A stretch of 64,000 bases of DNA from Candidatus Omnitrophota bacterium (GCA_023247795.1 JAHFFT010000001.1:2868-66867), one strand, 5' to 3'; counted from the stretch's first letter, positions 2,449-19,000 are shown. The notes: a model not told the origin generated them from the letters alone. A program made the numbers and translations.

Positions 2449-2976
2449 TCAGCTGCTCAATAGCCTTTTATAAATTCGATAATCCTGGTCATCAAAACAA
2501 CAGAAAATAACTTTTTCAATTGCGGATACGCGGGAAAGGAACTCTTTAACGGTGGCGACTGCTATCTGACCTGCTTTTTCTTTTGGAAAAAGGTAAACTC
2601 CGGTGCTGATGCAGGGAAAGGCCATTGATCGAATCTTATTTTCTTCGGCAAGCAAGAGCGACCGCTGATAACATCTTCTTAAAAATTCTGCTTCGCGATG
2701 CTGCCCGCCCTTCCAAACAGGCCCAACGGTATGAATCACATATTTTGCAGATAAACGATACCCTTTCGTTATCTTCGCCTCTCCCGTCTGACATCCACCG
2801 AGTGTACGGCACTCTGCAAGAAGCTGGGGGCCGGCGGCCCGATGGATCGCCCCATCAACGCCTCCCCCGCCGAGCAGTGAAGTGTTTGCGGCATTGACAA
2901 TCGCGTCAACCGACAATCGGGTGATGTCTGCGCAGACAGCTTCGCTTTGATTCATCGACTCCATGATAACCGTCAT
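2449..2976 (-). CDS. ymdB: Macro domain protein (O-acetyl-ADP-ribose deacetylase, YmdB-like)
   Basis: [41 protein letters not shown] and [15 protein letters not shown] are canonical macro-domain motifs. The ORF-track start at 3009 is TTG. The first ATG is at 2976, so the start is uncertain. Confidence 0.85.
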
Positions 2977-3075
2977 TCCCAATGAAAAAAAATCCTCGGA
3001 ACCGGACAAAAACTCCCCTCCCAGACTCTTTATTAAACAGATTCAATTTATCCTTTATTTTCAGACGAGTAGGAA

Positions 3076-3870
3076 CTATATCATTCTCTTTCTTACCAGC
3101 TCCATGATTTGAATGATCGCTTCTTGGGCATTGTCATAGATCACCAAATCCGCATAAATGTCATAAGGAGTTGCCATCAGATTGATGATCAAAACTTTGG
3201 CCCCCCGCCGTTTGGCCTCGATCACCAAATAGGCGGCCGGCTGGACTAAAAGGGACGCCCCAATGACGATAAAAAGATCGCTTTGCATGGTAGCCTGCAG
3301 GGATCGCAGAGAAGACTCCAAAGGCATGGGTTGTCCAAAGGCAATGGTGTTTGATTTTAAAATACCCCCGCACAAATCACAATAAGGAACCTGGATTCCC
3401 CCTCCTTTAATCCGCTGATAGATATGATCTCGAGAGAACCGGGCATAACAATGCAAACAACTGACCGAAAATATACTGCCATGGATTTCGATCACTTTTT
3501 CTTCTGACGATTGCGCCCTTTGATGAAGGCGATCGACATTTTGGGTGATCACCGCCAACAATTTCCCTTTATGTTCTAATTCCGAATAGGCATAATGAAC
3601 CTCATTCGGTTGTACCCGCAGCACCAATTCATAAAATTGCTGTTCCATTTCCCAAAAGATCTTTCGTGACCTTTCACTGTCAATGAATTGCTGATAAAGA
3701 AAGTCCTTAGGATCATATTTGGTCCAATAACTGTGTCCGATCCCTCGAAAATCAGGTACACCCGAATCCGTGCATGCCCCCGCACCAGTAAAGCCGACGA
3801 TCTTCTGTGAACCTAAAATCAACGACGCGGCACGTTCAATTTTTTCCTTTTTCTTTCGCGTTGAAAACAT
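3076..3870 (-). CDS. cobB: NAD-dependent protein deacylase (sirtuin, CobB/Sir2 family)
   Basis: GAGACTDSGVPDFRG Rossmann/NAD motif, TQNVDRLH, catalytic IEIHGS, and a Zn ribbon CLHC...CDLCGG. The ATG shares one nt with the upstream stop (TGATG). Confidence 0.85.
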   Translation of the reverse strand: MFSTRKKKEKIERAASLILGSQKIVGFTGAGACTDSGVPDFRGIGHSYWTKYDPKDFLYQQFIDSERSRKIFWEMEQQFYELVLRVQPNEVHYAYSELEHKGKLLAVITQNVDRLHQRAQSSEEKVIEIHGSIFSVSCLHCYARFSRDHIYQRIKGGGIQVPYCDLCGGILKSNTIAFGQPMPLESSLRSLQATMQSDLFIVIGASLLVQPAAYLVIEAKRRGAKVLIINLMATPYDIYADLVIYDNAQEAIIQIMELVRKRMI

Positions 3871-4958
3871 CAGCCTTGTCCAATCAGTTTTTCAAGGTCT
3901 CGCCAATAATGATCAGCAAAAACTTCTCCGCGGTACCACTCCAGACCAAATTCCGGAGAATAGACCAATTCCATGGGAACGGCATAAAATCCATCTTTTC
4001 GCTTTAATCGATTCGACTTAACTAACCAAATGATAAAAATAGTCACGGCATTGAAAGGAATAACAAAAGTTGGGAAAGGAAGATAATGGATTCCCAGATA
4101 GGTCAGAAGAACAGCGCCGAGACACCCCAAGAAGGTCAAGACACAAACATGTTTGTTAATCACAATAAAAATCCCCCCCAAGGCCAAGACAGTGGGAATC
4201 GAATTATAAATGTACAATTCCAGCATTCCAAATTCGTGTACTCCCCCCAGGAAAAAAATCAATATGATATTGATCAAGGTTGCCACGCTGACCACGAAAA
4301 ATGATAGCGAGGAATGGTAAAAAACGGCAATCATAATAATGAAAAAAGCCATCATATGATTAGAAAAGGCTTGCAAGAATATTTTTATGGTCTCCCACGT
4401 CCATTGCTTATTGGATAACGTGATGATACTCGCATTGAAATTCCGAAAATATTCGATCATACGCTCATCGGGGCCGCGCCAACTGCTCGACGGAAAAAAA
4501 TGGTTTGAAAGACTGCTCAGCAACAATAGGAGAAGTAGCGAAGGAATACTAAAGACCGGGAGGTTGGCAATTGTTCGGGCATTGAAATCACTCATCGCCT
4601 TCATCATCACTGAAGAAAGCGCCGCCGCAAAAATGAAAAGCAGAAGCGAGATAAAATTCAAATTGAAAAACCAAGCCCAGGCCACCCCAAGGACAACACC
4701 ATTGAATCCGTAAACCCCCGAGTTGATATGAAAGGGCCGCACTTTCAGATGAATGGCTGTGGCCGTCGACGCCATAACCCCTAAGACCGTCAGAAACCAT
4801 ACCTCCCTCGAAATAACAAAAATGGCGACGGATAAAAGAAAACCGGTGAGTTGATTAGGGCAAATCAGGACTTGCCCATATCCCTTTAAAAGGACCTGTA
4901 AATGTGGAAGGAATTTATCACGGGGAAGAAATTCTCTCCATTCGGTAAGATAATCCAT
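3870..4958 (-). CDS. Urea-transporter (UT) family channel-like membrane protein with an extra C-terminal cytoplasmic tail
   Basis: First-half signature LLKGYGQVLICPNQLTGFLL...LGVMASTATAIHL...SGVYGFNGVVLGVA. Second-half signature LYIYNSIPTVLALGG. About 10 hydrophobic segments, then a ~60-aa hydrophilic tail. Confidence 0.65.
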   Translation of the reverse strand: MDYLTEWREFLPRDKFLPHLQVLLKGYGQVLICPNQLTGFLLSVAIFVISREVWFLTVLGVMASTATAIHLKVRPFHINSGVYGFNGVVLGVAWAWFFNLNFISLLLFIFAAALSSVMMKAMSDFNARTIANLPVFSIPSLLLLLLLSSLSNHFFPSSSWRGPDERMIEYFRNFNASIITLSNKQWTWETIKIFLQAFSNHMMAFFIIMIAVFYHSSLSFFVVSVATLINIILIFFLGGVHEFGMLELYIYNSIPTVLALGGIFIVINKHVCVLTFLGCLGAVLLTYLGIHYLPFPTFVIPFNAVTIFIIWLVKSNRLKRKDGFYAVPMELVYSPEFGLEWYRGEVFADHYWRDLEKLIGQG

Positions 4959-4970
4959 GCGTGGACGATT

Positions 4971-6371
4971 TCATTTTTGCAGTTTCAAACGGTCGGGTAA
5001 CACATCTAGACGACGAAAGTCGGACATGACTTCCGGCATTCGCAAATATTCCGCCTCACCATGATGAACAATGACAACCGCGGGACGCGCATAAATGAAC
5101 TGCATTGATTGGCTCATATTATAAGCGCCGACATTCTTAATGATAAGCTGACTGCCCTTCTGCAACTGTGGTAAGCGCACGCCTAAACGAATCACATCGA
5201 TTTGCATGCACAAGGGGCCATACACATTCACATTATCCAAATGGGGGCCCATGTCCTGGACAGTCATAAATTCATGTTTATACCAATAAGCCGTAACCAA
5301 AATATTAACACCCGCATCAATGATAATCGCCTTTGTTCCATCAGCGAATCGTTTGGTCGCCACAACCGTTGTTATCATCGACACTGCCTCATCTACCAGG
5401 GAACGTCCCGGCTCGAGGATCAAACGGGGTTTGCTCTTAAACTCCTGAACCCGATTGCGCAACGGATAACAGAGGGCTTCCGCATACTGCTCTAAGGTCG
5501 GAATGATCGCGGAACCGGTTAAAAACTGCGAATGGAGAGTATTGCAGGAGGCATAGCCTCCCCCCATATCAAGATACTCAATCTGCACGTCGAATTCCCG
5601 CTCCAATTTTAAAGCAAAATCAATCAACTTATTAACCGCCTGATAATACGCCCCGTGGTCAGAGATGTAAGTCCCGATATGACAATGTAAGCCGTTCAAC
5701 TGCAGACTTCCCGACGAGACAACCCGACGCGCTGCTTCAAAGGCCTGTCCGGCCTCGAGATTAAAACCAAACTTACTCCAAGCCGGATAAGTCACATCAA
5801 CATTGACCCGAATCCCTACCTTCGCGGGATCCTTCTTAGACGGCCAAAGATTTTCAATTTGCTGAATCTCATCAAAAGAATCAATATTTATGATCGACTT
5901 TCCTTTTATGGCTCGCATCAGATCGGCACTTGTTTTATGGACACCATTGAAAACAATTTTTGTCGATGGCATACCTAAGTCTTCGGCCATTTCATATTCC
6001 AAACCCGAAACGACTTCTGCCCAGGCCCCTTCTTGATGCAAAATCGTACAAATACCAGAAAGATAGTTGGTCTTGTAAGAATAGGCAATATAGGTATCGG
6101 AATAAATTTTGCGTAAATTCTTGATAAAATCCCGATATCGCTGCCGAAGATCTTTCTCCGAAACAACATACAAAGGAGAACCATATTTGGCAACGAGTGT
6201 GGAGACATCCACACCGTCGATCTGCTGACAGGGAGTCGCGCTTAATGTTCGACCACGATATTTGTTCGTTGCTGCCAGCGAATGAATCGTGATCAGCGGT
6301 TTTTCGTAGGTGCCTCGGCGAACGCCGGGCGTCACAGTTTGACTTTTGGAATCATGATTTCTATGAATCAT
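4971..6371 (-). CDS. Fold-type III PLP-dependent decarboxylase (Orn/DAP/Arg decarboxylase family)
   Basis: YSYKTN (PLP lysine), GLHCHIGT, DMGGGY, EPGRSLV and GPLCMQIDV are the family motifs, in the correct order. There is an 11-nt overlap with the upstream ATP-grasp gene. Confidence 0.85.
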   Translation of the reverse strand: MIHRNHDSKSQTVTPGVRRGTYEKPLITIHSLAATNKYRGRTLSATPCQQIDGVDVSTLVAKYGSPLYVVSEKDLRQRYRDFIKNLRKIYSDTYIAYSYKTNYLSGICTILHQEGAWAEVVSGLEYEMAEDLGMPSTKIVFNGVHKTSADLMRAIKGKSIINIDSFDEIQQIENLWPSKKDPAKVGIRVNVDVTYPAWSKFGFNLEAGQAFEAARRVVSSGSLQLNGLHCHIGTYISDHGAYYQAVNKLIDFALKLEREFDVQIEYLDMGGGYASCNTLHSQFLTGSAIIPTLEQYAEALCYPLRNRVQEFKSKPRLILEPGRSLVDEAVSMITTVVATKRFADGTKAIIIDAGVNILVTAYWYKHEFMTVQDMGPHLDNVNVYGPLCMQIDVIRLGVRLPQLQKGSQLIIKNVGAYNMSQSMQFIYARPAVVIVHHGEAEYLRMPEVMSDFRRLDVLPDRLKLQK

Positions 6372-7419
6372 GAAAGATGAGTTCCTTTGTTGTTGCTAAC
6401 TGACCTAAACGACTGATCTCACACGTCATATCCAGCGAACTTCTTGCAAATAAAATCCCTGGTTTGAAGGGCAATTCAAAATCACCTTTTTTCCCAGAGG
6501 CAATCATAATAGCCGCCTTGGGCATATTACAACCGGCCTTGGCAGCCAACTGAATCCAATTCGGAAAACGCGGCCGGATATCCGTCAAAACATATTGGTT
6601 CGTAGTATGGCTCTTCACAAATTCCAATTCGGCCGGGCCACACCATTGGATTTCTTTTAACACCTTCCTCGCCATATCATCCAAGATCTCATCTTGCGTG
6701 GTCATGCCAATCCACGTTGACCCGTTTCTCGATTTGACAATTTTTTTCATGCCGGCACAAGCAACAACCTGATGCCGACGATTTGTCAGAGCGGCGATGG
6801 AATACTCATCACCACTGATATACTGCTGTAAGACCAAGGGACTTCCCCAACTCTCAAAAAATCGGTTGCTAAAAACACCTGCTTCTTGCGTAGAATAAAC
6901 TAACTGCTGTTCGCCACTGGGACATTTAACGTAAAAAGGCGAATAGAAATTCAGTGCCAAACTGGCTAATTGAGCTTGATCCCACAAAGGCATCGTATAA
7001 GGAACACCGACTTCGATGTTAACGGCCCAATAAGGAATACTTTCGGTCCGTGCTTTTCTTAAACTCGCTTCGCTGGGAATGAGCATTTTTACACCAAGGT
7101 CCCGCAGATCCGGCTCGAGTTTGATCATCGATGGGATTTCAAATTCCAGATTCGGGATAAGAAAATTGTTCTTGGACGTATCAACAATTTCTTTCATCCG
7201 TGATAGGTAACGATCTTCCTCTTCCTGCGGATAAGGAACAACATAAACCGCATCCACAAGTTTATCCAAATAGGCAATGCTGTCCAATAATTCATATACC
7301 AGCGCAATGATTTTGACTTCGAAATCGGCTTCGTTGCGAAGACAGCGAATAACCCCTATTCCGGGAGCTGGATCGGCTCCGGCATTTAAGCCGGTGACAT
7401 AAATATGATACCGTGCCAT
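6361..7419 (-). CDS. ATP-grasp family ligase (paralogue 2)
   Basis: 352 aa. The N-terminal layout is shared with 7430..8518 (YVTGLNAGADPAPGIGVIRCL vs FTGVDSTENPYPGLSVLRAI). The C-terminal ELEFVKS...VLTDIRPRFPNW resembles the ATP-grasp E-x-N/D-x-R Mg/ATP site. Confidence 0.7.
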   Translation of the reverse strand: MARYHIYVTGLNAGADPAPGIGVIRCLRNEADFEVKIIALVYELLDSIAYLDKLVDAVYVVPYPQEEEDRYLSRMKEIVDTSKNNFLIPNLEFEIPSMIKLEPDLRDLGVKMLIPSEASLRKARTESIPYWAVNIEVGVPYTMPLWDQAQLASLALNFYSPFYVKCPSGEQQLVYSTQEAGVFSNRFFESWGSPLVLQQYISGDEYSIAALTNRRHQVVACAGMKKIVKSRNGSTWIGMTTQDEILDDMARKVLKEIQWCGPAELEFVKSHTTNQYVLTDIRPRFPNWIQLAAKAGCNMPKAAIMIASGKKGDFELPFKPGILFARSSLDMTCEISRLGQLATTKELIFHDS

Positions 7420-7429
7420 ATCGACGTTG

Positions 7430-8518
7430 TTATAAAGGTGTCTGTTCGTTACTCGATAACTGGATACTGCGCCAATTGAGCGATCCCTGAAGATTCAGTT
7501 GAACCAAATGATTAAAATCACAAAAGATGTCCTCAAAAACACGGCTGAACATAACACCCTTCTTATACTCCAGTTGCGGCTCTACGCGTTCGCCTAACGC
7601 CAGTTTGAGCGTGAGCAGCGGCAAATTCAAATTGCTTGACATCGTGGTGTATATCCAAGCGGGTAACCGGGCATTGATCTCAATGATAAATTTCTTATTG
7701 AAATACGGATTCTTGATGATTTCGAGTTCCATGGGGCCTTGCCATTGCAACGCCTTAACGACCTTGCTGGCCAATTCATGAAACTCTTCGCCATCAACGG
7801 TCACGCCGGCAAAAGCTTTACCAGAATTTGTGATCCCAATTTTTTTCATCACCACTTTGGCCACGATATCACTGTTCTGGTCGGCAACCAACGCGATATC
7901 ATATTCGTCTCCATCAACACATTCCTGAACAATGAGCGGCAATCCCCATTGATAGGAAAAACGATGAAAAAAAACCTGCGCCTCATCTCGGTAATAAACC
8001 TTCTGTGCGTCAATGATCGAGCCTTTGATCAATAATGGATAATGCAGCTCAACCGAATGTTGATCAATTTCCTGGGGATCGTTGATCACATAACTCTTCG
8101 GATGATCAAATTGATTTTTTTCACAAAATTCCCTTAAAAACGCTTTCGATCGGGCCTTAACTGCCGCTTCCGGCGGAACAAAAGTCTTGATCCCGATATT
8201 CCTCAATTTATCTGCCAAACGGGCATAGGTGGCAATCTCCGAATCTAAACACGGGATCAAAACATCGATTTTGGTTTGGCGATGGATATCCTCGATCCTG
8301 GGAAATAGATAATTCTCCGGTTCGGAAGGGAAGGGGATCTGATAAACTTCATCGATCAGATCATATTTGTAAAGACCGGTCGTTACGCTATCATAAGTAA
8401 AGACAATGATTTTTCCTAGAAACTCGCCGGATTCCTTAATGGCCCGCAGCACGCTCAAACCCGGATAAGGATTCTCCGTCGAGTCTACGCCGGTGAAGGC
8501 CACATTGCAGTCAATCAT
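7430..8518 (-). CDS. ATP-grasp family ligase (paralogue 1)
   Basis: 362 aa. YPLLIKGS, LIVQECVDGDEYDI and MELEIIKN...FIIEINARLPAW (an EINxR motif) are typical of the ATP-grasp fold. Confidence 0.75.
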   Translation of the reverse strand: MIDCNVAFTGVDSTENPYPGLSVLRAIKESGEFLGKIIVFTYDSVTTGLYKYDLIDEVYQIPFPSEPENYLFPRIEDIHRQTKIDVLIPCLDSEIATYARLADKLRNIGIKTFVPPEAAVKARSKAFLREFCEKNQFDHPKSYVINDPQEIDQHSVELHYPLLIKGSIIDAQKVYYRDEAQVFFHRFSYQWGLPLIVQECVDGDEYDIALVADQNSDIVAKVVMKKIGITNSGKAFAGVTVDGEEFHELASKVVKALQWQGPMELEIIKNPYFNKKFIIEINARLPAWIYTTMSSNLNLPLLTLKLALGERVEPQLEYKKGVMFSRVFEDIFCDFNHLVQLNLQGSLNWRSIQLSSNEQTPL

Positions 8519-8889
8519 TGCTTAATTCCAATTTCTAACTCGCGCAGTTGATAAAGCAGATCATGGATATCGGAAACTAAAATTCCTTCACTGACCTCAT
8601 ATTCTTGAGTGAGTTGTTTTGCTAAGTCCTCCAGCGAAAGCCCCTCTTTGATCCTGGCGATAATAAAAGAAGCGGTCGTATTTAAAGCATAGACCCGGCC
8701 TGATTTAGCGTCAAATAAAAACCCATGACCATCTTCCGAGATTTCCGTACTCACGTGCTCCGGGATCGAAATCACATAATTTCCTAAATCCTTAAATTGG
8801 CAATCCTTCTTATTATTTCGATTGCGGAAACGTTCCAGGATTTGATCGATATCCTCGATCTTTCCTTTCCTTTTGATATACAATTTCAT
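8515..8889 (-). CDS. PqqD-like (RRE-type winged-helix) small protein
   Basis: 124 aa. GFLFDAKSGRVYALNTTASFIIARIKEGLSLEDLAKQLTQEYEVS matches the PqqD-family pattern. There is a 4-nt overlap with the downstream ATP-grasp gene. Confidence 0.6.
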   Translation of the reverse strand: MKLYIKRKGKIEDIDQILERFRNRNNKKDCQFKDLGNYVISIPEHVSTEISEDGHGFLFDAKSGRVYALNTTASFIIARIKEGLSLEDLAKQLTQEYEVSEGILVSDIHDLLYQLRELEIGIKQ

Positions 8890-8895
8890 CGTACC

Positions 8896-11400
8896 TTATG
8901 CCCCTCTATTCAATTCCCCCAAACCGTTTAAGGCTCCCAAATGTCCTGGAACAATTTCCAAGGCTTTCATAAATCTTTGCTTTGCCGCACTTTTATCGCC
9001 CTTCTTCAAATCACACCAACCCAACGCGGTATAAGGATCGGCATAAATATCCTGCTCTTTATGCAGCTCGAGAAGTTGATTAAAATATCCGGCTGCCTTA
9101 TCATAATTTTTAGTGTAAAAGTAACTCCAGCCTAAATTATTCAATACCACACTCCATTTCAACCATCCGTCTTCCTTCTCCGGTTTCTTCGATAAGAGCG
9201 GTTCCAGTCGATCAATCGCCCCCTTATAATCACCCTGGATAAAATAGATCGCTCCTAAACCTAAAGAAGCGCTTTCCGAGGTTGGCTCCTTCGCTAATAC
9301 TTTTGCAAATGATTCGGAAGCCTTCTTATAAATGCCCTGATAATAATAACTCCATCCTAACCGGCTATAAAGATCAAACCAGCCCTTTTCTGCGGCAAGG
9401 ATCTTTTGAAAATCCTCCGTCATTACATAATCCGGATAAATGTCGATGGCTTTCGCAAAGGCTTCTTTAGCAGGATCCAAGTTTTTAACTTGATACTGAC
9501 TTAACCCCAAACCATAATAAGGATCGACCCAATAGGGGTTGATATCAATGGCCATTTGAAAGCTTTCCGCGGCCTTAGCGTAATCTTTGATCTTATAAGA
9601 ACTCCAAGCTAAAGCGGTCAAGGCGGAATAATTTTTTGGGCTTTCTGCCACGGCTTTCTCTAAATATTCTTTAGCGCCGACATAATCTTTCCTTTGAAAT
9701 AAAATATTGCCTAAACCACTCAGGGCATCGAGATTTTTAGGATATTCCGCCAATAATTCTCGGAATTCTTTCTCCGCACTATCCTCTTCCCCTAAACGAT
9801 AGTAACACCAACCGATCCCTCCCCGCATGGCCAAGGCCTTATCTTGCGGAATATTTTTACCAGCATTTTGCAGGTCATATTTAAATTGCTTCAAGGCCGA
9901 AAAATAATCTCCTTGATAATAATAACTCCAGCCCAAATCGGTCCGCCCATATTTGGCTTGATCAACGGCCAGCAAACCATTTAAGGCATCCGCATAGCTT
10001 GGATTGAGAGCGAGCACGGCTTTAAATTCTGATTCCGCATCATCAACCTTTTTCAACATATAATACGACCATGCCAATCCATCATGCGGATCAATCCAAT
10101 TAGGCTGATTCGTAACCGCCTTTTTAAACTCTTGTGCTGCTTCACTGTATTGTCCCAGTTTATAATCCGCCCACGCCAGGCTTGACTGGGCATCGCTTTG
10201 CACTAAATAGCTGGCAATGGTCCCGGGGATTTGGACATATTCGCTCACCGCCGGTAAAGTCGGATTCTCCTTTAACGATTGCTTAAAATATTTTGCAGCA
10301 TCTTCAAATTGACCCAATTTATAAGCGGCATAACCCAAACCCCTTAAGGTTTCGCCATTCTTTCCTAAAACTTTAGAAGCCTCATCAAATTCTTGGGCCG
10401 CGAGTTGAAAATACCCTTGTTGATAATAACTCCATCCAACCACATTATAGAGATCTTGCCAATCCGTCTGAATTTTGAGAACATTCTTAAATTGTTCATC
10501 GGCGACAAAAGGATAAATGTTGATGGCCGTCGTAAAATACTCCTTTGCCTTCGGGAAATCCTTCAAATCAAAATACGTCCAGGCCAAACCTTTATAAGGT
10601 TCAACCAAATAGGGGTTCAATTGTCGGGCCTTCTCAAACTCTGCTTTTGCCCTCTCAAAATCAGATTTGCGATTATAAATCCACCCGATCTTGCTTTGCA
10701 CATCCGGTTGATAAGCTTGAACATCAAGCGCTTTCTGCAAAAAAACCAAGGCCTGATCAAAATCATTCATCTCAAAATACGAAAAACCTATTCCTTTGAT
10801 GGCATCAAAACTATCCTTTTGCAGACTCAACACTTGCTCAAAATTATGAATGGCTTCCTGGTATTGCTTGTTGAAATGATACGACCATGCCAATCCAGTG
10901 TGAACCCTCCACAATTCTATATTCGGTAAACGTCCACTGGTATCAGCAACAATGGCTTCAAAGATAGTAATCGCCTTGCTATAATTCCCGGCATAATAAT
11001 ATTGCCAAGCACGATTAAAAGGGCGATAACGCCAAGCACTCACTTCTGCCATCCCGTTCAGGGAACCGGGGAAATATGGATAAATTTGTAGACATTTTTT
11101 AAAATTCTCTTCCGCAGTAACAAATTCGCCTTTTTGTAAATAATTCCATCCTAACCCATCATAGGGATCACACCAATCCGTGTGCTCCTGAACTTCTTTC
11201 TGAAATACCCCAATCGCTTGATCATATTGTTTATCATAATAAAGATCCCAAGCCTCTTGGGAAACGGTGGGCTCTTCCTTTTTATTGTTTTCCTCAGCCA
11301 CGGCCTTTTGAACATTGATGAAAACATTGATCAAAACAAAGATCGTCACAACGACAAAACATAACATCGTTTTACAGCTCATTAATTTTTTTAAACGCAT
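8896..11400 (-). CDS. Large TPR-repeat protein with N-terminal signal/anchor
   Basis: 834 aa. Hydrophobic N-terminus MLCFVVVTIFVLINVFINVQKAVA, followed by about 20 repeats of the W/G-WxY...A...F.KAL...P TPR pattern. Confidence 0.8.
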   Translation of the reverse strand: MRLKKLMSCKTMLCFVVVTIFVLINVFINVQKAVAEENNKKEEPTVSQEAWDLYYDKQYDQAIGVFQKEVQEHTDWCDPYDGLGWNYLQKGEFVTAEENFKKCLQIYPYFPGSLNGMAEVSAWRYRPFNRAWQYYYAGNYSKAITIFEAIVADTSGRLPNIELWRVHTGLAWSYHFNKQYQEAIHNFEQVLSLQKDSFDAIKGIGFSYFEMNDFDQALVFLQKALDVQAYQPDVQSKIGWIYNRKSDFERAKAEFEKARQLNPYLVEPYKGLAWTYFDLKDFPKAKEYFTTAINIYPFVADEQFKNVLKIQTDWQDLYNVVGWSYYQQGYFQLAAQEFDEASKVLGKNGETLRGLGYAAYKLGQFEDAAKYFKQSLKENPTLPAVSEYVQIPGTIASYLVQSDAQSSLAWADYKLGQYSEAAQEFKKAVTNQPNWIDPHDGLAWSYYMLKKVDDAESEFKAVLALNPSYADALNGLLAVDQAKYGRTDLGWSYYYQGDYFSALKQFKYDLQNAGKNIPQDKALAMRGGIGWCYYRLGEEDSAEKEFRELLAEYPKNLDALSGLGNILFQRKDYVGAKEYLEKAVAESPKNYSALTALAWSSYKIKDYAKAAESFQMAIDINPYWVDPYYGLGLSQYQVKNLDPAKEAFAKAIDIYPDYVMTEDFQKILAAEKGWFDLYSRLGWSYYYQGIYKKASESFAKVLAKEPTSESASLGLGAIYFIQGDYKGAIDRLEPLLSKKPEKEDGWLKWSVVLNNLGWSYFYTKNYDKAAGYFNQLLELHKEQDIYADPYTALGWCDLKKGDKSAAKQRFMKALEIVPGHLGALNGLGELNRGA

Positions 11401-11489
11401 ACTCTCCTCCTATGTTAATCTAAATCTGTTAAATAACTGCTCAAAATAGTTATCCTTGACAACAATGATCGTACGGGAAGTTTTTGTTC

Positions 11490-12611
11490 TTATAAAGAAT
11501 TGGTCTTTTGATCGACTTGCTCAAGTCCGGTGAGAGAACTCTTATACGAAGGAGTAAGAGCTAAGGCTTTATTGAACATCACTCGAGCAGCTTTCATACG
11601 TCTACGACTCGTTTTATTTTTTCCTTTGGCGGTCTTATCATTATCCCAGTAAAGATACGACCAACCGATCTTATCGTAAATTTCAGCATTTCTTTCATAC
11701 TTCAAAGCCTGTTTATAAATCCCTATGGCTTCTTGATATCGCTTTAAAGAAAACAAGCAATCTGCCCATTTGATTCGGGCGTCATTCCATTGCGGCTTCA
11801 GCCGAGTGGCCATTCGAAACTCTTTTAAGGCCTTTCCAAAATCCTGACGGCTAAAATTAAGATAACCTAATGCCCGATGAGCTTCCGGCTCAGTTTTAAC
11901 ATGCACGCCCCTTTGATATCGCATCCCTTTAACTAAGGCCCGCTGGAGATATTTTTCGGCAATCTCAACTTCTCCCTTTCGAAAATAACACCAACCCAGA
12001 CCTGCATAGGCATCAGAAGAATTAGAATCTATACTCAACGCTTGTTCAAAATAGTTAATGGCTTGGGCCCAATCTGATTTTTTAAAATTTGCCCAACCTC
12101 TCCCGGTATAAGCATCAACGACCTTAGGATCCACTAAAACCAAATCGCCAAACGTTTTGCTGGCACTCTCATAATCACCTTTACCAAAATAGGCCCACCC
12201 TAGCAAAGTCAAGGCCTCTGAACTCAAGGGATTCTGTCTCACTGCTTTCTCAAAATATTCAATGGCTTTCTCGTGATTGTTAACCGATAAATAATACGAC
12301 CCTTCTGAGGCATAACCTTTGCCTCGACGATCTCCGGTGGAAGTAAAAATGGGTTCTTCTCCTACATTAACAACGGTCATCGCCATTTCAACGGGCTTTG
12401 TTCCTATTTCATAAAGTGACTTAAAAAGTTCCGGTACCTGCTTGACATTCGTCATAGACTTCGCAACATCAACCGGTAGCTTCGCGATTCCCACAACCTC
12501 CTCTTTGACCAGTTTCGGCACTTTTTTAACGGTGGCAGCACAGCCGGTCATCATTCCTCCAGCCAGCAGCAGGGTGATGAATTGCAAACATGGGTATGAG
12601 GAAATTTTCAT
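11490..12611 (-). CDS. TPR-repeat lipoprotein
   Basis: Lipobox-like LLLAGGMMTGC at the N-terminus. Multiple TPR units (GWAYFGKGDYESA, GWANFKKSDWAQA, GWCYFRKGEVEIA). Confidence 0.75.
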   Translation of the reverse strand: MKISSYPCLQFITLLLAGGMMTGCAATVKKVPKLVKEEVVGIAKLPVDVAKSMTNVKQVPELFKSLYEIGTKPVEMAMTVVNVGEEPIFTSTGDRRGKGYASEGSYYLSVNNHEKAIEYFEKAVRQNPLSSEALTLLGWAYFGKGDYESASKTFGDLVLVDPKVVDAYTGRGWANFKKSDWAQAINYFEQALSIDSNSSDAYAGLGWCYFRKGEVEIAEKYLQRALVKGMRYQRGVHVKTEPEAHRALGYLNFSRQDFGKALKEFRMATRLKPQWNDARIKWADCLFSLKRYQEAIGIYKQALKYERNAEIYDKIGWSYLYWDNDKTAKGKNKTSRRRMKAARVMFNKALALTPSYKSSLTGLEQVDQKTNSL

Positions 12612-12628
12612 CGTAAGCCGTTCCTTCT

Positions 12629-14227
12629 TTAAAACTCGATATCCAAACCAAATTCCACTTGATAGGCGCCATCGGCCTCGCCATCCCGTCGAGGAGTAGG
12701 CGCGAATATGTTATTGGCGGCAGTATCGGCGCGGGTTTCCTTATAATAATCTCCCGGGAAAAAATATCCTGACAAAATACTAAACTTTATGGCTTTGGTG
12801 ATTTGATAACTAGCAAAGACATCCAATTCCTGGCCCAAGTCTTTTGAAAAAGTTTTTAAATTCCCATTGCCATCCAGACCCCATCCCGGTTCTTTTGAAC
12901 GCAAATACCAATAATCCACGCCGATATACCATTTTTCAAGTGGGGTATAATCAAATCCAACGGTCGAAGCAATCAAATTTTCAAACATGAAAGGGTCACC
13001 AAAGGTCCCGGGACGAGCGACGCCAAAATTGACCGCGTATCCGCCTGCCATTGCCACATAAGGACCAAACTGTTTCTGATAATGCGTATCGGTTAAATTG
13101 GTGTTTAATGGGGAAAAAACACTGAAGGCCTCATTTTCATTACTGGTGAGGGTAAGTTCATTATAATTCTGCGCGTTGAATCGGTTACCGGAGGCCATAA
13201 AAAATTTCGTCTTCGGTTTGAACGCCCCCAAATCATAACTGGCATCCGCAACCAAAAGATAACCTTTATGTTCGATATCATTTTGTGCCGTGTTGATGGC
13301 CTTCGCCTTTCCCAAATTTTGGTCCCCTTCAAACCCAAGATTCAGACGGTCAAAATTCAGTTTTAAATAAGCCCCTGGTGTCACAAGATCTTCGTTTTTC
13401 ACACGGGTGCTGAATCGACTTGCACGCGCACCTTCTGGTGTTCGATCCCTCAGCCAGCCGGTATAAAGTTGTAACCGTTGTTTACCCAATTTGAATGTCG
13501 TATCCGCCGTATAAAAGTAAGCATTGGTGTCATTCCAATCATTGACCTTCTCATGATCAATGACTTTTCCTAAATGAATACGATTATTCAGATCTTCTTT
13601 TTCCCAGTGGACATTCCAATCGAGTGATTCATTAACTCCAGAAAGGGTTAGCCCATAATTTTCATATTTTCCACCCAAGGCAATGTTATGACCAAGATCG
13701 CGTCCGTAAGGATACAGACCAAATTTGAAATTGACATCTTTCGTTGAATTCACCGGAACTTCCAGCCAGGTTTCTCTTAATCGAGGATATAAATCTGAGT
13801 TTTGGTACCAATGATACCGTCCAAATAAAGAGTTGATGCCACGGCTCCCATAAAGCGGGGCATCATAATCGGCGCGCCCCCTTCTTTCTACAAAAGAATA
13901 AAACTCAAGGCCGGAAAGATGGCGGAGATCAAAAGTAAAGTCATAAGCTAACCCAAGATAACTGGTCTTATCATTGTTATTCGCTAAATCAAGATCAACC
14001 GTATTGTTCACTAAATTATAAGACGTACGCAGGTGCGCTCCGGAATGAAATTTCCAATTTGATTCATCCAATAAAAAAGGATGTTTCTCAACATCCAAAT
14101 CTTTAACGTCTTTAAAATAACTCTGAGCATATATAGAGGAAGGCAGGGCAAATAAGGAAAGGAAAATAAAAATATTGACGAAAGGCTGAAGGAAAACTTT
14201 TTTACTTTTTTTGTTTTTACAAGTCAT
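12629..14227 (-). CDS. Outer-membrane beta-barrel protein (porin/exporter-like)
   Basis: The ORF-track start at 14269 is TTG. ATG 14227 gives MTCKNKKSKKVFLQPFVNIFIFLSLFALPSSIYA (signal peptide). Alternating amphipathic strands run throughout, and the C-terminus is FGLDIEF (aromatic terminal residue typical of OMPs). Confidence 0.65.
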   Translation of the reverse strand: MTCKNKKSKKVFLQPFVNIFIFLSLFALPSSIYAQSYFKDVKDLDVEKHPFLLDESNWKFHSGAHLRTSYNLVNNTVDLDLANNNDKTSYLGLAYDFTFDLRHLSGLEFYSFVERRGRADYDAPLYGSRGINSLFGRYHWYQNSDLYPRLRETWLEVPVNSTKDVNFKFGLYPYGRDLGHNIALGGKYENYGLTLSGVNESLDWNVHWEKEDLNNRIHLGKVIDHEKVNDWNDTNAYFYTADTTFKLGKQRLQLYTGWLRDRTPEGARASRFSTRVKNEDLVTPGAYLKLNFDRLNLGFEGDQNLGKAKAINTAQNDIEHKGYLLVADASYDLGAFKPKTKFFMASGNRFNAQNYNELTLTSNENEAFSVFSPLNTNLTDTHYQKQFGPYVAMAGGYAVNFGVARPGTFGDPFMFENLIASTVGFDYTPLEKWYIGVDYWYLRSKEPGWGLDGNGNLKTFSKDLGQELDVFASYQITKAIKFSILSGYFFPGDYYKETRADTAANNIFAPTPRRDGEADGAYQVEFGLDIEF

Positions 14228-14407
14228 TCTCAAAGATTGTTGAGATTCAAATTTTATAACATCTCGCAAACATTTTTTATCCTAAGCATTTTTCGTTTCA
14301 ATTGCAAGTTTTTTTTAAATTTTTTGTGGGACAGGCCAAAAATCCCGGGTATCAGGGATAAAAGATGTTGCTGGTAAAAGTCGTAAATCCTTTTTCTCGT
14401 CGAATGT

Positions 14408-14437
14408 ATTATAAAAATTTTTACTCTCACATAGCAA
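14408..14437 (-). promoter_or_regulatory. Candidate sigma70-type promoter for the OMP/TPR operon
   Basis: The minus strand reads TTGCTA - 18 nt - TATAAT. The -35 element lies inside the palindrome CATAGCAAA-CGGA-TTTGCTATG (14430..14451). Confidence 0.3.
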
Positions 14438-14483
14438 ACGGATTTGCTATGTCCAAAAAATTTATCCTAGAAGTCGGCTGGAA

Positions 14484-14513
14484 GAATTCCTCGCAGCTAG
14501 CTGCGAGGAATTC
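14484..14513. repeat. Perfect 30-bp palindrome of the CCTCGCAG...CTGCGAGG family
   Basis: GAATTCCTCGCAGCTAGCTGCGAGGAATTC is its own reverse complement. Confidence 0.9.
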
Positions 14514-14580
14514 GCTCGAGTAAAAACTGAAGATCAGAGGTATCGTGGTTTAACAGCAAGGATAAAATTCAATACTTAAC

Positions 14581-14677: not shown

Positions 14678-15778
14678 TTAATTGGGTCGCGGACCATCAC
14701 TGCCAAGGCCGCCCGGCTGACCACCAACATGATTGGCGTTATTCAGACCCGCGCCGCCCAGACCAGGTCTTTGCGTACCCTGACTTGATAATACCCCAGG
14801 CTTCGGCATGACAGGACCGACAGGCCGATTGCCATTTAACTCTTGATGGCCGGCTCCTTGCCCTTCCATTTGGGGAGATTGGTCGGACTGCATATTCCGC
14901 ATTTGACCTTGTTCTTCTTGACTATGCTCTTGCATCGCTCCCTTCGGTGCTTCATGTTGTACTTTTATCCCTCGCATTTTCTCATACTCGCTTTTCATTT
15001 GTTCTCGACGATCTTGCTGCTCTTCATGAGACGCTTGCATTTTCTCTTGATGCTGCTCTTTCATTTCCTGCAGCTGTTCATGCTCAGCATCCATCTGCTC
15101 TCGATACTCCTGTTGCTCTTCACGAACCGCTTGCATTTTCTCTTGATGCTGCTCTTTCATTTCCTGCAGCTGTTCATGTTGCGCCTTCATTTCTTCTCGC
15201 TGTTGCTGAAATTGTTCTTTATAAGCCTCTGCGCGTTCCGAATTAGCTAACGGCGGTTTTTGGTTAGGCCCGCTTATCAGTGGTCTATTCATTTCGCCCA
15301 TTGAAGCATTGGGACGAGAACCTTCTTGCTGATCACCCATAGGGCCATTATCACGTTGCCCCATCTGATCAGGTTGATTCATTGGTTGCTGCGAACCTTG
15401 ACGGTCATTATCTGTTCGTGGACCAACCTGAGAATTGCCTTGTTCACCTTGCTGCGCACCCGATTGCGGACGATTTTGTTCTCCACCCATACGATTGCCC
15501 TGAGATCCACCCTGGCCTTGCATTCCCGATCCGTTGGGCCGATCGTTATTCATACCAGGATCTCCTCTTTGGCCTCCTGGACCGCCAGAACCACCAGGTC
15601 CACCTGCTCCGCCTTGACCACCTTGATGTCCAGCGTTCATACCCTGTCCCGGACCGCCATGTCCACCTGGACCTCCAGCTCCCGGACCACCACCCGGCCG
15701 CGGCCCTTGCTGGGCGAAAACCACACCCGAAAGCGCTAAGCAAAAAATTCCAATCAAAGCCATGATTCTCATTTTCAT
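14678..15778 (-). CDS. Secreted low-complexity G/P/Q/E/M/H-rich protein
   Basis: Signal peptide MKMRIMALIGIFCLALSGVVFAQQ. A good SD (AAGGAAAGG) precedes the ATG. Composition-biased throughout, with the internal repeat EQLQEMKEQHQEKMQA. Confidence 0.75.
   Translation of the reverse strand: MKMRIMALIGIFCLALSGVVFAQQGPRPGGGPGAGGPGGHGGPGQGMNAGHQGGQGGAGGPGGSGGPGGQRGDPGMNNDRPNGSGMQGQGGSQGNRMGGEQNRPQSGAQQGEQGNSQVGPRTDNDRQGSQQPMNQPDQMGQRDNGPMGDQQEGSRPNASMGEMNRPLISGPNQKPPLANSERAEAYKEQFQQQREEMKAQHEQLQEMKEQHQEKMQAVREEQQEYREQMDAEHEQLQEMKEQHQEKMQASHEEQQDRREQMKSEYEKMRGIKVQHEAPKGAMQEHSQEEQGQMRNMQSDQSPQMEGQGAGHQELNGNRPVGPVMPKPGVLSSQGTQRPGLGGAGLNNANHVGGQPGGLGSDGPRPN
15032..15178. repeat. Intragenic direct repeat (51 bp identical, 96-bp period)
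   Basis: 15032..15082 and 15128..15178 both read CGCTTGCATTTTCTCTTGATGCTGCTCTTTCATTTCCTGCAGCTGTTCATG. Confidence 0.9.
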
Positions 15779-16018: not shown

Positions 16019-19000
16019 CTAAAATTCTTGTAAAGACTTAACTCTTTTTGTTTCTTGATGATAGCTCAATTGCTCTTCGTTCGGTGGAACCGTTTTCCCG
16101 ATCAGAGCTGGTAAATTGGTCACAGGCTTGATCTCCATGATGATCGGCAGAAAGCCATCAAATTGTAAATTTTTAATCTGCTCCGGATCAAAATCAAACT
16201 TGATTGCTGGCCCTTCATTTTGAATCATCAGCTCCAAATTTTCCGGATTCAAGTCGATACCACCAACCTCCGATGAAGCATTTTGCGGAGCAATGGTAAT
16301 CGCCGACACCTGTGGATTATTTGTATTACCTAGAAAAAAGGAATCCTTCATCCCCGGAGCTAATACCAAATTTTGGTCTAATAAATCAAGATCATTGCTG
16401 TCTCCGTTTTCTTTCTTAACTTGATTTTTAGCAATGTCCCAGACCCCGCCAAACCCAAAATCGAAAGCCTTGCCAGCCCACCCAGGGTATCGAGCAAAAT
16501 CAATCTGAACAGCATTATCTTCTGCCATAACCGGCTTTCCAGTCTCTGGATCTCTGACCATCACTTTTCCCGTGGGATCAAAATAAAGTCCTAAATCCAA
16601 ATGCCAATTGACAATTTCTTGCGCGGTCTGCCGACTTTCACCGTTTGTTACCGCAAATGCCTTGGATTCAATCAACTGATTGATTTGGGCGGAAGCACTT
16701 TCTGACAAATCATGAGCGCTTTCAGAACGAGGCTTGGCATACCAAGATCTTTGAATCTCACCGGTTTCCGGGTCAAAGAGGGCCATGACCGCCTCCTGCC
16801 TTTTCCATTTGTATTGACCGGTAACGGTCGAATAAGTATCACTGCTGTAATAAAGTTCCATCCGATTATCACGCGAAGCCAAAACATAAATACGGTCGTG
16901 CATAAAAAACGCTTGATGGAACAGAAACAAATTGGGTTTACCTTCGGTTGTATTTTGACGGTTCTGCCTGACATATCTGGCAAATGCCTCTTTTGTGGGA
17001 GCATCCTTCGCGTTGATCACCTTGAATGAGTAATCCCCGCTGTTCACTTCGCCGATGACGCGATCTTCATCCCTGCGCCATTGAGCTTTTTTGTTTTTCT
17101 TGATCAGAAGTCTCTTGACCCGCCCCAATTCAACCGCCTTGGAAAATTTATAGCTCCGATATTTGTAGATCAATTCCGAAATGACGTATTTGAGATCCAC
17201 CACCTTCTCTGCCTTCTCAAATTGATAAACCAAAACGAGGTAATGCGTGATCAAAGCAAGAATATCGGCCTGATCACCCTCAGTTTTTACACCGAGTTCT
17301 TTGTCAACATCACGGATAAAATCCTGATCAATATACTCAGCCAGTTTTAGAATCCCATCTTTATCTTTCCCTAAAAAATATTTTTTCATCTCATCATTAA
17401 CTTCGATCGCCATTATTGTGTTCAACCGTTCTATTCTCCTTTCAAGCTTTAGTATTTCCTCTTGACCAAAATTTTCCTTTAACTGTAATTTTAGTAGCAC
17501 TAATTCATGCCTTCGTTCCGCGTTAGTCATTAATATGCTGCGGACTGGCACTTGAGTAAATTTGTGATACCCATTCGCCGTTAGGACCGGTGCTAAACGA
17601 TTCGCCTGAGCAAAAAAGTCAGCCCGATCTGACGGGTTTGTTGTAAGAACGATATCCAAGGCCAAAGCAATGAGATTGAGAATATTCCGGTAGCGGTCTG
17701 GATCAGATTGAAAAATCTTAGCCAAAGGAAAATCGACATCTAACTTGAAACGATTTCTTTCTTTTTCATCATTTTGGACAACAATCTTTAAAACGTTGCC
17801 GGGGCTGCGCTTTTTTATCGTTTTCTTGATTCGATCTCGATCGATATCCGCTTTCGTGATCTCATTGATCGCCATGGTTCCTTCTGTTCCAGCGGTCCCC
17901 TCGATTTCATCCTCGAATGCTTCAGGAACAGGTACGAGAGGGATATCCGACTTGGATTCTTTATGGCCTTCGACAATGGCAGCAATCGTTTGCTGTTGAA
18001 AATCTGTGAGATCTTCATCAACACCTGGTTTCGGTGTTCGAACAGGAAACCCTTTGCCAATCTCGGCCAAGACGGGTTTCAATTCACTCCATTCCTTAAT
18101 AGGCAATTTAGTAAATCGAGAACTTTCTCTCAATAAAACCAACCGCGAATAAATCCTGCCGACATGGCTTTCTGGTTCCAGTTCATCCAGTTCATGCAGA
18201 TCGATGGCTTCCAGCAACTCCGCGATATCATCCCTCGTTGCCTCAATCCTTTCCAAGTCACTCGCCACCGTCTGGCGAAAATACTCCATGACAACCTCTG
18301 ACGATTCCAAAATTTTTTTCATAGCGAACATCGCTTCTTCATCATCCATTTGATCACGGACCGAATTCATCCCTCTCGCGAAATAGCGAGTACATACCTC
18401 TGGTTCTCTTTCAAATTTCCCCAAAATCTTCGCAATCAACCCCTCACGTAATGCTGCTGCTAATTTTTGCACGTTCACACTGAATTTATTTTCCCTTCGA
18501 ATCATATCAAATGTTATAAGCTGACTGGCCGTAAGCTCTTGCTGACCTTTCCCACGTAAAATCTTGACCGCTTGCGGCAATTGCTTTTGTTGCGTTAGAA
18601 TGACGGCTAAAATCAATCGCTTTTGATCATCGGTCAATTGCGCGCTTTCTTTGATTCGCTTTTTTTCATCCAAATAATCCTGATTGGCATCAGCGACCAG
18701 GAACTTAACCGCGCGTTGCAAATATTCTGGCATTGCCTTGAGCATTTTATTATTTTGTAAAACATATCTTTGGTTTCCAGAATCGGGATCAAAAATTCTT
18801 CCGCAGCGCGTTGCGATGATTTTAAAAGGATACGAATCCCCGACCGAATCGTTATGAGTGGGTTCAAAATCAATCTTGCCCTCATCATCAATTCGACCTT
18901 CCAGCATCGTGGGCGTATACTCACTATGCATCGCCTCGGTTATCAAAACCTTTTCAACGGATTGATGGAACCGGCTTCTTTGATTTATCGCCAAGCTTTG

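Follow-up and report, generated by a model that had tools for sequence, protein, structure and literature searches.

The window, a stretch of 64,000 nucleotides from a Candidatus Omnitrophota bacterium (GCA_023247795.1 JAHFFT010000001.1:2868-66867), encodes an outer-membrane beta-barrel and two TPR proteins in one operon with a PqqD/ATP-grasp/PLP-decarboxylase cassette. It is well supported that barrel/TPR modules and the cassette are inherited together in at least four bacterial phyla. The combination suggests a system, not yet described, that spans the envelope and handles a non-carbohydrate product. The reading favoured here, tentatively and with slightly less than even confidence, is that the three barrel and TPR genes provide the periplasmic and outer-membrane half of this system and the cassette its cytoplasmic half.

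Organisation of the operon

Ten genes on the minus strand are packed tightly at the locus, with intergenic gaps of -11 to +89 bp, in the order barrel, TPR lipoprotein, 834-aa TPR protein, PqqD, two ATP-grasp ligases, PLP decarboxylase, urea-transporter-family (UT) protein, SIR2 and macro domain. The first-pass annotation had described a barrel, a TPR lipoprotein and an 834-aa TPR protein upstream of a ligase cassette, and all three ORFs were found on the minus strand, as listed below.

14408..14437, minus strand: sigma-70-like promoter match TTGCTA-18-TATAAT, 10/12 consensus matches, 5' of the barrel gene
12629..14269, minus strand: outer-membrane beta-barrel of the AlgE/Alginate_exp fold class, TTG start
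11490..12611, minus strand: TPR outer-membrane lipoprotein, lipobox MMTG/C, AlgK-like partner by position
8896..11400, minus strand: 834-aa secreted TPR protein with TPR hits and a signal sequence, predicted periplasmic scaffold
8515..8889, minus strand: small PqqD-family (RRE-type) protein, PF05402 47.4 bits, 45-aa N-terminal extension
7430..8518, minus strand: ATP-grasp ligase A, ATPgrasp_Ter/PRK12767-like by profile matches
6361..7419, minus strand: ATP-grasp ligase B, a paralogue with D-I-R in place of the Mg-binding E-x-N motif
4971..6371, minus strand: Fold-III PLP decarboxylase, closest to FslC/FigC, then LysA
3870..4958, minus strand: UT-family inner-membrane protein, short form without M23 domain, PF03253 112.9 bits
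3076..3870, minus strand: sirtuin, SIR2/CobB-like, PF02146 136.6 bits
2449..3009, minus strand: macro domain, O-acetyl-ADP-ribose deacetylase-like, PF01661 165 bits

The lipoprotein and barrel genes are 17 bp apart, and the 834-aa TPR gene lies 6 bp upstream of the PqqD gene. The PqqD and ATP-grasp A genes overlap by 4 nt, an ATP-grasp ligase gene overlaps the decarboxylase gene, and the UT stop and sirtuin start share 1 nt. The promoter candidate is the top-ranked site on the minus strand; it is a consensus match only, and its function is predicted.

Barrel, TPR proteins and their co-inheritance with the cassette

Database protein P0001 has the same TTG start as given here for the barrel gene; the ATG at 14227, in the same frame, is an alternative start that yields a classic signal peptide (...SSIYA/QS). 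The C-terminus reads ...FGLDIEF, in agreement with the annotated signal-peptide barrel ending in ...DIEF, and a C-terminal Phe or Tyr is conserved in every homologue inspected. The barrel scores above the gathering threshold of Pfam Alginate_exp (PF13372; 27.7 vs 25.2 bits), a match confined to residues 244-517, and many of its 53 database homologues carry a precomputed PF13372 match. A confident AF2 model (pLDDT 86.4) gave an 18-stranded monomeric fold resembling AlgE. AlgE was also the top structural match, about 3.6 Z units above the next, which bears out the suggested similarity to AlgE-type exporters, although the two proteins are just 14% identical and no sequence-level PDB match for the barrel was found. 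The fold is common to OprD/Occ uptake channels as well; these scored below AlgE and lack dedicated TPR partners, and the barrel has no Pfam OprD match.

The lipoprotein carries the signal/lipobox sequence LLAGGMMTG/C, with the lipobox Cys kept in 5/6 relatives, and matches TPR_1 and TPR_2 with E-values of about 1e-35. Wherever it was detected in a cassette-linked locus, it adjoins the barrel. The pairing of barrel and TPR protein thus holds as in known exporters, the lipoprotein accompanying the barrel like AlgK with AlgE. Homology to AlgK itself was not detected: AlgK is absent from the best 60 of 102 PDB sequence matches (E<=1e-3), which are generic TPR proteins instead. The 834-aa protein, which bears an N-terminal signal sequence, has at least 12 repeats (TPR_2 E-value 1e-99).

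All of the distinct loci with an orthologous barrel (8/8, identity 54% or more) have the complete cassette. In 3 of these 8 the unit of barrel and lipoprotein is inverted relative to the unit of big TPR protein and enzymes and is still linked to it; hence the linkage survives rearrangement. In the rearranged loci the 834-aa TPR gene remains with the PqqD-enzyme unit. The three genes annotated as a trio are therefore all present, but they group as two plus one, with the big TPR gene belonging with the enzymes.

More distant cassette-linked barrels were found in Scalindua, Firestonebacteria, Nitrospinota and one metagenome contig. In a neighbour-joining tree, which carries no support values, all cassette-linked barrels (Omnitrophota, Scalindua, Nitrospinota and Firestonebacteria) form one clade. 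Outside it are 59 stand-alone homologues, 26 of which have at least 6 kb downstream, and none of these 26 is followed by the cassette. Linkage is thus seen in 13/13 loci inside the clade and 0/26 assessable loci outside. Co-conservation of the outer-membrane and TPR genes with the ligase cassette is strict across the linked loci inspected, and therefore the objection that the two are not co-conserved, raised in the first-pass annotation itself, fails to refute the idea of an export module.

TPR proteins and porins are common, and most of the barrel's wider family lacks a link to the cassette, as would be expected if ordinary envelope genes had come to lie beside a ligase cassette in one lineage by chance or synteny. 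Such an origin is strongly disfavoured and very improbable given the linkage in at least four phyla, its persistence through inversion of one unit, its restriction to one clade, and the fusion of lipoprotein and big TPR protein into a single protein in the linked Scalindua locus L007.

The core cassette itself was found in at least 597 species, among them cultured Hymenobacter and Algoriphagus. Its usual downstream neighbours in Bacteroidota, Ignavibacteriota and Cloacimonadota are unrelated TPR proteins. Among the 53 ATP-grasp-centred loci with enough flank, 44 have a small TPR protein after the cassette or, in locus L006, window-type barrel and TPR genes. A further signal-peptide protein often stands beside the small TPR protein; that of Bacteroidota models as TPR plus a 14-strand outer-membrane barrel (pLDDT 90.9), and profile comparison shows no similarity between it and the window barrel. 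The substitution of an unrelated TPR-bearing barrel in other phyla is an argument that the enzymes require a partner in the outer membrane. However, an adjacent TPR/barrel gene is missing in 9/53 loci, and the enzymes can thus exist without a neighbouring outer-membrane module.

These data also bear on uptake, in which the barrel would be a substrate-specific porin and the UT protein an inward channel, feeding a small amide, urea-like or amino-acid substrate to the ligase and decarboxylase, with the TPR proteins only placing the porin. The wider barrel family does consist mostly of stand-alone, porin-like genes, and UT-family proteins are narrow, passive urea channels. Nevertheless, uptake is unlikely in view of the clear lead of AlgE as structural match, the separate clade formed by the cassette-linked barrels with their own TPR partners, and the supply of a different TPR-bearing barrel by unrelated phyla. 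Moreover, dedicated TPR protein amounting to about 1200 residues is not known from uptake porins.

Cassette enzymes and associated proteins

A PqqD-family gene is present in 70 of the analysed loci. In ATP-grasp A, relatives of which are encoded in at least 597 species genomes, every family-invariant residue is in place; a second ATP-grasp copy was detected solely in the Omnitrophota and Scalindua L007 loci. The decarboxylase matches FigC (PDB 7kh2) with an E-value of 2e-66 and 227 bits, compared with 164 bits for LysA. It is not an FslC equivalog (NCBIfam NF041039; 258.4 bits, cutoff 500), though FslC is nonetheless its nearest characterised relative. Enzymes of the FigC subfamily (FigC, SbnH, AcsE, MccE and BtrK) decarboxylate citrate-, peptide-nucleotide- or carrier-protein-tethered amino acids (PMC7857480).

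The first-pass annotation had raised the possibility that the ATP-grasp enzymes polymerise amino acids. This proposal found no support: profile searches do not place the ligases near RimK or cyanophycin synthetase, the closest kin of the decarboxylase act on a single tethered amino acid, and the enzymes give no sign of a poly-amino-acid or other polymer. They suggest instead a product that is amide-linked and decarboxylated (diamine-ended), and not a polysaccharide. No precursor peptide or conserved small ORF was found across 80 loci, where short or fast-evolving peptides could escape, and the intergenic region at 14.2-14.7 kb shows no obvious candidate. A polymerase was not found either.

As the earlier annotation had noted, no glycosyltransferase follows the barrel and TPR genes, the next genes being those from PqqD to the macro domain. 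A Pfam scan of the operon and the other window ORFs revealed no synthase or glycosyltransferase except MurG and a PMT_2 (GT-C) protein, the gene for which lies about 9 kb away and is absent beside the barrel in the other loci inspected. A domain search found no PilZ or GGDEF-type domain among the operon proteins, and the operon has no periplasmic polymer-modifying enzyme (lyase, deacetylase, epimerase or acetyltransferase).

Classical exopolysaccharide export would place the synthase elsewhere in the genome and have the cassette decorate a sugar precursor, for instance by coupling a diamine to a uronic acid through an amide bond. The AlgE fold and Alginate_exp membership of the barrel favour it, as does the set of barrel, TPR lipoprotein and long TPR protein, which mirrors AlgE/AlgK, PelB and BcsC (PMC9734138). 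In addition, an AlgI/DltB-type MBOAT gene is inserted in the cassette of Cloacimonadota locus L021, an insertion seen only once. However, no conserved glycosyltransferase, PilZ protein or polymer-modifying enzyme adjoins the genes in any of the 13 linked loci, nor did the Pfam scan show one among the other window ORFs. Conserved charged alignment columns of the barrel are mainly acidic (23 acidic vs 12 basic, counted whether lumen-facing or not), which would fit a polyanion poorly; the electropositive, arginine-lined pore of AlgE-type barrels suits a polyanionic polymer. Polysaccharide export is thus decidedly unlikely.

The UT protein contains the Pfam UT domain and falls short of the urea transporter equivalog TIGR03441 (90.5 bits vs cutoff 274.6). 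Its homologue is fused to a Peptidase_M23 domain in most other phyla. In the fusion the catalytic His and Asp are conserved, leaving the active site intact, and no transmembrane segment follows the UT domain; the M23 domain is probably cytoplasmic, judging from the positive-inside pattern and the topology of UT proteins. Among the loci the fusion and the short UT protein plus SIR2 are mutually exclusive, and the sirtuin is co-conserved with the short UT. The macro domain (NF001664, 236 bits vs cutoff 200) is restricted to this window among the loci examined and is absent from related loci.

As M23 is a peptidoglycan endopeptidase family, an envelope role was also considered, in which the cassette would modify a wall precursor, for instance through an added amino acid whose decarboxylation leaves a diamine bound to the wall, and the barrel and TPR proteins would make up a tether between outer membrane and wall or a remodelling complex, and not a conduit. 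The cassette lies directly after PBP2 and RodA in 6 Bacteroidales loci, and the operon of the window, like that of locus L001, is downstream of the dcw cluster. This wall-gene synteny is, however, confined to certain lineages. Furthermore, no transmembrane segment separates M23 from the probably cytoplasmic UT C-terminus, M23 is replaced here by an NAD-dependent and necessarily cytoplasmic sirtuin, and no Mur-ligase-like specificity is evident for the ligases in the ATP-grasp profile searches. A role in the wall is hence regarded as improbable.

Proposed function and relation to known systems

The favoured envelope-spanning reading builds on the gene identities, folds, operon packing and the joint inheritance of cassette and barrel/TPR clade, and from these we infer the chemistry, the direction of transport (export) and physical contact among the components. 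The ATP-grasp ligase(s) would act in the cytoplasm, coupling an amino acid to a carboxylate group of a larger scaffold, possibly a small acid or a peptide bound by the PqqD-like protein. Once the amino acid is tethered, the FslC/FigC-like decarboxylase would strip its free alpha-carboxylate to give an amine-ended amide conjugate. A cytoplasmic amidase module (UT-fused M23 in most phyla, the sirtuin here) may release or trim the product, which would pass the inner membrane via the UT-family protein. In the periplasm, the lipoprotein and the long TPR protein would together build a scaffold that docks on the AlgE-fold barrel, the outer-membrane pore. Against export, a passive urea channel would be an odd exporter. 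A stronger form of the export reading, in which an ATP-grasp-built polyamide/polyamine-type chain or peptide conjugate is threaded through the UT channel, TPR scaffold and AlgE-fold barrel independently of a synthase, appears quite improbable.

Synthase-dependent exopolysaccharide secretion is defined as including an outer-membrane barrel and an outer-membrane-linked TPR protein (PMC9734138). The window operon has both, but it has no synthase, c-di-GMP co-polymerase or polymer modifier. As in the AlgE/AlgK system of Pseudomonas alginate, the barrel gene stands beside a separate gene for a TPR outer-membrane lipoprotein, and a further periplasmic TPR scaffold is shared with PelB, BcsC and PgaA. 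Unlike AlgK, the window lipoprotein has canonical TPR repeats, with no detectable AlgK homology. The operon also differs from the alginate system in having no Alg8/Alg44-type synthase, c-di-GMP receptor, lyase, epimerase or acetylation gene, and in partner genes for amide ligases and a decarboxylase next to a barrel with mostly acidic conserved charges.

The rhizoferrin pathway of FslA/FslC (FigA/FigC) and the SbnH, AcsE, MccE and BtrK pathways ligate an amino acid to a scaffold and then decarboxylate it, a logic that would suit the overlap of ligase and decarboxylase genes in the window. They differ from the window system in that its ligase is of the ATP-grasp type and not an NIS synthetase, and that PqqD, UT and TPR/barrel proteins are found in place of a TonB-dependent receptor or MFS exporter. 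A feature in common with RRE (PqqD) RiPP pathways is the translational coupling of the PqqD-family protein to a modifying enzyme, and the fusion of a peptidase domain to a membrane protein in most phyla recalls those with a peptidase-transporter. In contrast to them, no gene for a precursor peptide was detected in the 80 cassette loci, and the membrane protein is of the UT family and not an ABC transporter. No PqqD partner is described for graspetides, the RiPPs made by ATP-grasp enzymes; PMC8939145 mentions PqqD as an analogy only.

Neither curated HMM libraries nor a literature search gave a specific name or description for the core cassette. To our knowledge, the cargo of porin-plus-TPR export has so far been polysaccharides alone. 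This architecture, held to be a signature of polysaccharide secretion, is here strictly co-inherited with amide ligases and a decarboxylase of tethered amino acids. If the reading of a polyamide or peptide conjugate were true, it would add a fourth kind of cargo. The cassette represents widespread envelope biology that is open to experiment in cultured Hymenobacter and Algoriphagus. Its product, once worked out, could reveal a new class of secreted or wall-bound metabolite and possibly a new role for urea-transporter-family proteins.

Organisation of the putative operon and its surroundings

Ten ORFs lie head-to-tail on the minus strand from ~14.3 to 2.4 kb, with spacing of -11 to +89 bp, a packing that would be expected of a single operon. 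The features at its upstream end are as follows.

14437..14408, minus strand, top sigma-70-like match of this strand, directly upstream of the barrel gene
12629..14269, minus strand, barrel protein of 546 aa (532 aa if the ATG at 14227 is the start) with a signal peptide and the C-terminus ...DIEF
11490..12611, minus strand, TPR protein of 373 aa with the lipobox MMTG/C
8896..11400, minus strand, big TPR protein of 834 aa with a signal sequence

The first-pass annotation had described these three genes as an exopolymer-like export apparatus without a glycosyltransferase, and the gene content itself is borne out, all three ORFs being present as described. The big TPR gene is followed, in order, by genes for a PqqD-family protein, two ATP-grasp ligases (A and B), a fold-III PLP decarboxylase, a urea-transporter-family (UT) membrane protein, a sirtuin (SIR2) and a macro-domain protein; the genes from PqqD to UT are referred to as the cassette. 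A terminator scan returned 15 matches versus 14.8 in shuffled sequence, i.e. the chance level, and no minus-strand match inside the gaps of the operon. It is informative only in giving no sign of internal termination.

At the downstream end (2449-3870, minus strand), the sirtuin start and the UT stop overlap by 1 nt, and the macro-domain (O-acetyl-ADP-ribose deacetylase) gene that comes next is found in the window only. Directly upstream of the operon, 14678-15778 (minus strand) encodes a secreted, low-complexity protein of 366 aa rich in Gly, Gln and Glu, and further upstream there is an ORF of 2093 aa without a Pfam match (16019-22300, minus strand). Neither gene adjoins the barrel gene in the related loci inspected for gene content. 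An inverted repeat at ~14480-14520, downstream of the Gly/Gln-rich gene and upstream of the promoter-like site, has 14-nt arms (GAATTCCTCGCAGC, loop TA, GCTGCGAGGAATTC) and no T-run, and was not called by the terminator scan. At the far end of the window, a gene that runs past the edge (60206-63997, minus strand) encodes a protein of >1263 aa with ART-PolyVal ADP-ribosyltransferase and methyltransferase domains, and a DUF4143/AAA_14 ATPase gene lies nearby. 'Polyvalent' proteins of the ART-PolyVal type occur on mobile elements.

Predicted properties of the barrel and TPR proteins

The barrel protein narrowly clears the threshold of the Pfam family Alginate_exp (27.7 vs 25.2 bits). No meaningful match was obtained in a PDB sequence-profile search with a profile of 44 barrel homologues, and the likeness to AlgE was found by fold search only. 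AlphaFold models the barrel with confidence (pLDDT 86.4, pTM 0.82), and the model is not that of a generic porin unrelated to exporters, the outcome named in the first-pass annotation as contrary to its proposal. Conservation in the family peaks at residues ~346-417, which combine scant regular secondary structure with high model confidence and may form a constriction or plug inside the lumen. Acidic residues predominate in the conserved charged columns (23 acidic vs 12 basic). The pore of AlgE is electropositive, and the conserved acidic columns would differ from it in this respect if they face the lumen.

The barrel fold by itself gives no direction of cargo movement. Because it is common to OprD channels, and UT-family proteins are passive channels, uptake, in which the barrel and UT proteins would bring a substrate inward rather than export a product, retains some probability; we consider it unlikely.

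Both TPR proteins gave very strong canonical TPR matches, and no specific family passed its curated cutoff. The lipobox Cys is present in five of six relatives of the TPR lipoprotein. In the Candidatus Scalindua locus L007, the lipoprotein and the long TPR protein form a single fused ORF of 1555 aa. Comparison of the lipoprotein with PDB sequences revealed generic TPR proteins only, with no AlgK among the best 60 of 102 matches; as a sequence relationship to AlgK was not detected, the lipoprotein is AlgK-like by position and type and is not a family member. Two further features of the TPR proteins were discarded: their net charge and pI, which are inconsistent among orthologues, and the C-terminal ...A-L-x-G-L... 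of all TPR partners, rejected as a family signature as it simply marks where a generic TPR helix begins.

Linkage of the barrel and TPR genes to the ligase cassette

A search with the barrel protein revealed 53 homologues, chiefly from metagenome bins of Omnitrophota and Nitrospinota. Barrels at least 54% identical to that of the window occur at eight distinct loci (the window, L001, L003, L006, L091, L092, L094 and L095). All eight include genes for the TPR lipoprotein, the ~830-aa TPR protein, PqqD, two ATP-grasp ligases, the decarboxylase and a short UT protein, i.e. one with no M23 domain, and thus show the co-conservation by which the export proposal was to be judged. SIR2 is present in seven, the exception being L092, where the contig stops just past the UT gene.

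In L003, in L006 and in what appears to be a second copy of it, L093, the barrel and lipoprotein genes are on the opposite strand and converge on a unit extending from the big TPR and PqqD genes to SIR2. Hence, the linkage outlasts rearrangement, and the big TPR gene goes with the enzymes and not with the barrel. An aldo-keto reductase gene lies between the SIR2 and lipoprotein genes in these three loci (L003, 11011-11910; L006, 15524-16486; L093, 4132-5094) and is not found in the collinear loci, the window included.

At 33-40% identity, cassette-linked barrels were found in Scalindua (L007), Firestonebacteria (L012), Nitrospinota (L022 and L089) and a metagenome contig (L147). Most barrels in this range stand alone. 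The cassette was seen at none of their 59 loci, of which 26 extend at least 6 kb downstream. In a neighbour-joining tree, which has no support values, every cassette-linked barrel falls in one clade, apart from the stand-alone barrels; this clade also includes the barrel of L122, a contig that stops just past a following TPR gene. The wider family looks like an ordinary porin-type family in which one clade is dedicated to the cassette.

Relatives of ATP-grasp A are present in at least 597 species genomes. Carrier taxa include Ignavibacteriota, Bacteroidota, Cloacimonadota, Myxococcota, Planctomycetota, Nitrospinota and Omnitrophota, among others, and Hymenobacter edaphi, H. gummosus and Algoriphagus sp. 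CAU 1675 are among the cultured carriers. The core in the best 80 loci consists of PqqD (~85 aa), one ATP-grasp ligase, the decarboxylase and the UT protein, which at most of these loci carries a fused Peptidase_M23 domain (UT::M23) and is therefore ~728 aa long. The M23 domain keeps its metal-binding and catalytic His/Asp residues, and the stretch after the UT domain has no transmembrane segment. Among the 53 loci with at least 4 kb beyond the UT gene, 44 have a ~210-aa secreted TPR protein encoded after the cassette or, in the case of L006, barrel and TPR genes of the window type alongside it, usually together with a further signal-peptide protein; in the other nine, no TPR or barrel gene adjoins the cassette.

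When the window barrel and the TPR-barrel of Bacteroidota were compared profile to profile, the probability was 2.5%, i.e. no homology, so that they count as analogues and not as orthologues. Thus, the barrel that accompanies the same cytoplasmic cassette differs between phyla: there are two unrelated types, and both have TPR partners. No other observation argues as strongly for joint action of the enzymes and an outer-membrane/periplasmic module. Adjacency of the barrel/TPR genes and the cassette by chance is effectively excluded by the co-occurrence seen from both the barrel and the ligase.

Proposed chemistry and relation to known systems

The decarboxylase is closest to the N-citrylornithine decarboxylase FigC/FslC (7kh2, 227 bits; LysA, 164 bits; BtrK, 85 bits) and falls short of the FslC family cutoff. 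Members of the FigC subfamily (FigC, SbnH, AcsE, MccE and BtrK) decarboxylate an amino acid tethered to citrate, a peptide-nucleotide or a carrier protein (PMC7857480). The ATP-grasp enzymes belong to the uncharacterised PRK12767/ATPgrasp_Ter group; their top PDB relative, 2pn1, was deposited solely under a generic carbamoyl-phosphate-synthase name, and they match RimK and LysX at only ~20 bits. In the simplest reading, the ATP-grasp enzyme would join an amino acid to a carboxylate scaffold, and decarboxylation would then yield an amine-ended amide. With a PqqD-like protein present, the scaffold might be a peptide. Among small ORFs, none was conserved across the 80 loci and none stood out upstream of the barrel as a precursor peptide; since no precursor was found, the cassette is not a demonstrable RiPP cluster. 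Nor is it an NIS siderophore cluster, as it includes neither an NIS synthetase nor a TonB receptor. The cassette is not covered by the graspetide survey, and no description was found in literature searched by gene combination, a weak negative as subscription journals fell largely outside the search.

ATP-grasp B of the window (6361-7419, minus strand) has D-I-R-P-R in place of the Mg-binding E-I-N-x-R of the family. The Asn is also missing in the L001 orthologue and is kept in L003 and L006. With D-I-R at the E-x-N position, ATP-grasp B may be impaired, and in this lineage the second ligase may have changed or lost its catalytic activity.

Two mutually exclusive variants of the cassette occur, one with UT::M23 and the other with the short UT protein, SIR2 and a second ATP-grasp ligase; the latter three co-occur throughout and never with the UT::M23 of other phyla. 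M23 peptidases and sirtuins both cleave amide bonds and a sirtuin necessarily acts in the cytoplasm, which suggests a cytoplasmic release or trimming step. Speculatively, either the M23 domain or the sirtuin would release or trim the product there.

A cell-wall role for the cassette is also suggested by the M23 fusion, by its position directly after PBP2-RodA in six Bacteroidales loci, and by the location of the operon downstream of the dcw cluster in the window and L001; however, both syntenies are limited to particular lineages. In L049 (6024-9670) and the five other Bacteroidales loci, a 168-aa ORF with no Pfam match, PBP2 (transpeptidase) and RodA precede the core cassette on the same strand, an arrangement that suggests co-transcription with cell-elongation genes. 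In the dcw cluster of the window, a single 789-aa ORF (27264-29633, minus strand) combines MurC (Mur ligase domains) with D-Ala-D-Ala ligase, which are encoded by separate genes in L001.

As predicted outer-membrane hardware, the module of the window is comparable to AlgE/AlgK. When compared with the criteria for synthase-dependent secretion systems (PMC9734138), it has the barrel and TPR components but no synthase, c-di-GMP receptor or modifying enzyme, and is therefore outside that class. A polysaccharide exporter with a synthase encoded far off is disfavoured, given that no linked locus has a conserved glycosyltransferase, PilZ protein or polymer-modifying enzyme, and that the other window ORFs scanned with Pfam show only MurG and a PMT_2 gene; an AlgI/DltB-type MBOAT within the cassette of one Cloacimonadota locus points the other way. 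At this locus (L021, 7399-9743), the MBOAT gene (PF03062, 116 bits) and a gene for a 315-aa protein with no assigned function lie between UT::M23 and the small TPR gene, which hints at acyl transfer onto an extracytoplasmic acceptor.

Export of an amide conjugate is put forward tentatively as the mechanism. That the cargo is a polymer, possibly of amino acids as first proposed, is a minority reading and quite improbable. Coupling of the barrel/TPR module to the cassette is assigned with high confidence. The association noticed in the window is thus real, and broader than the first-pass annotation could show.
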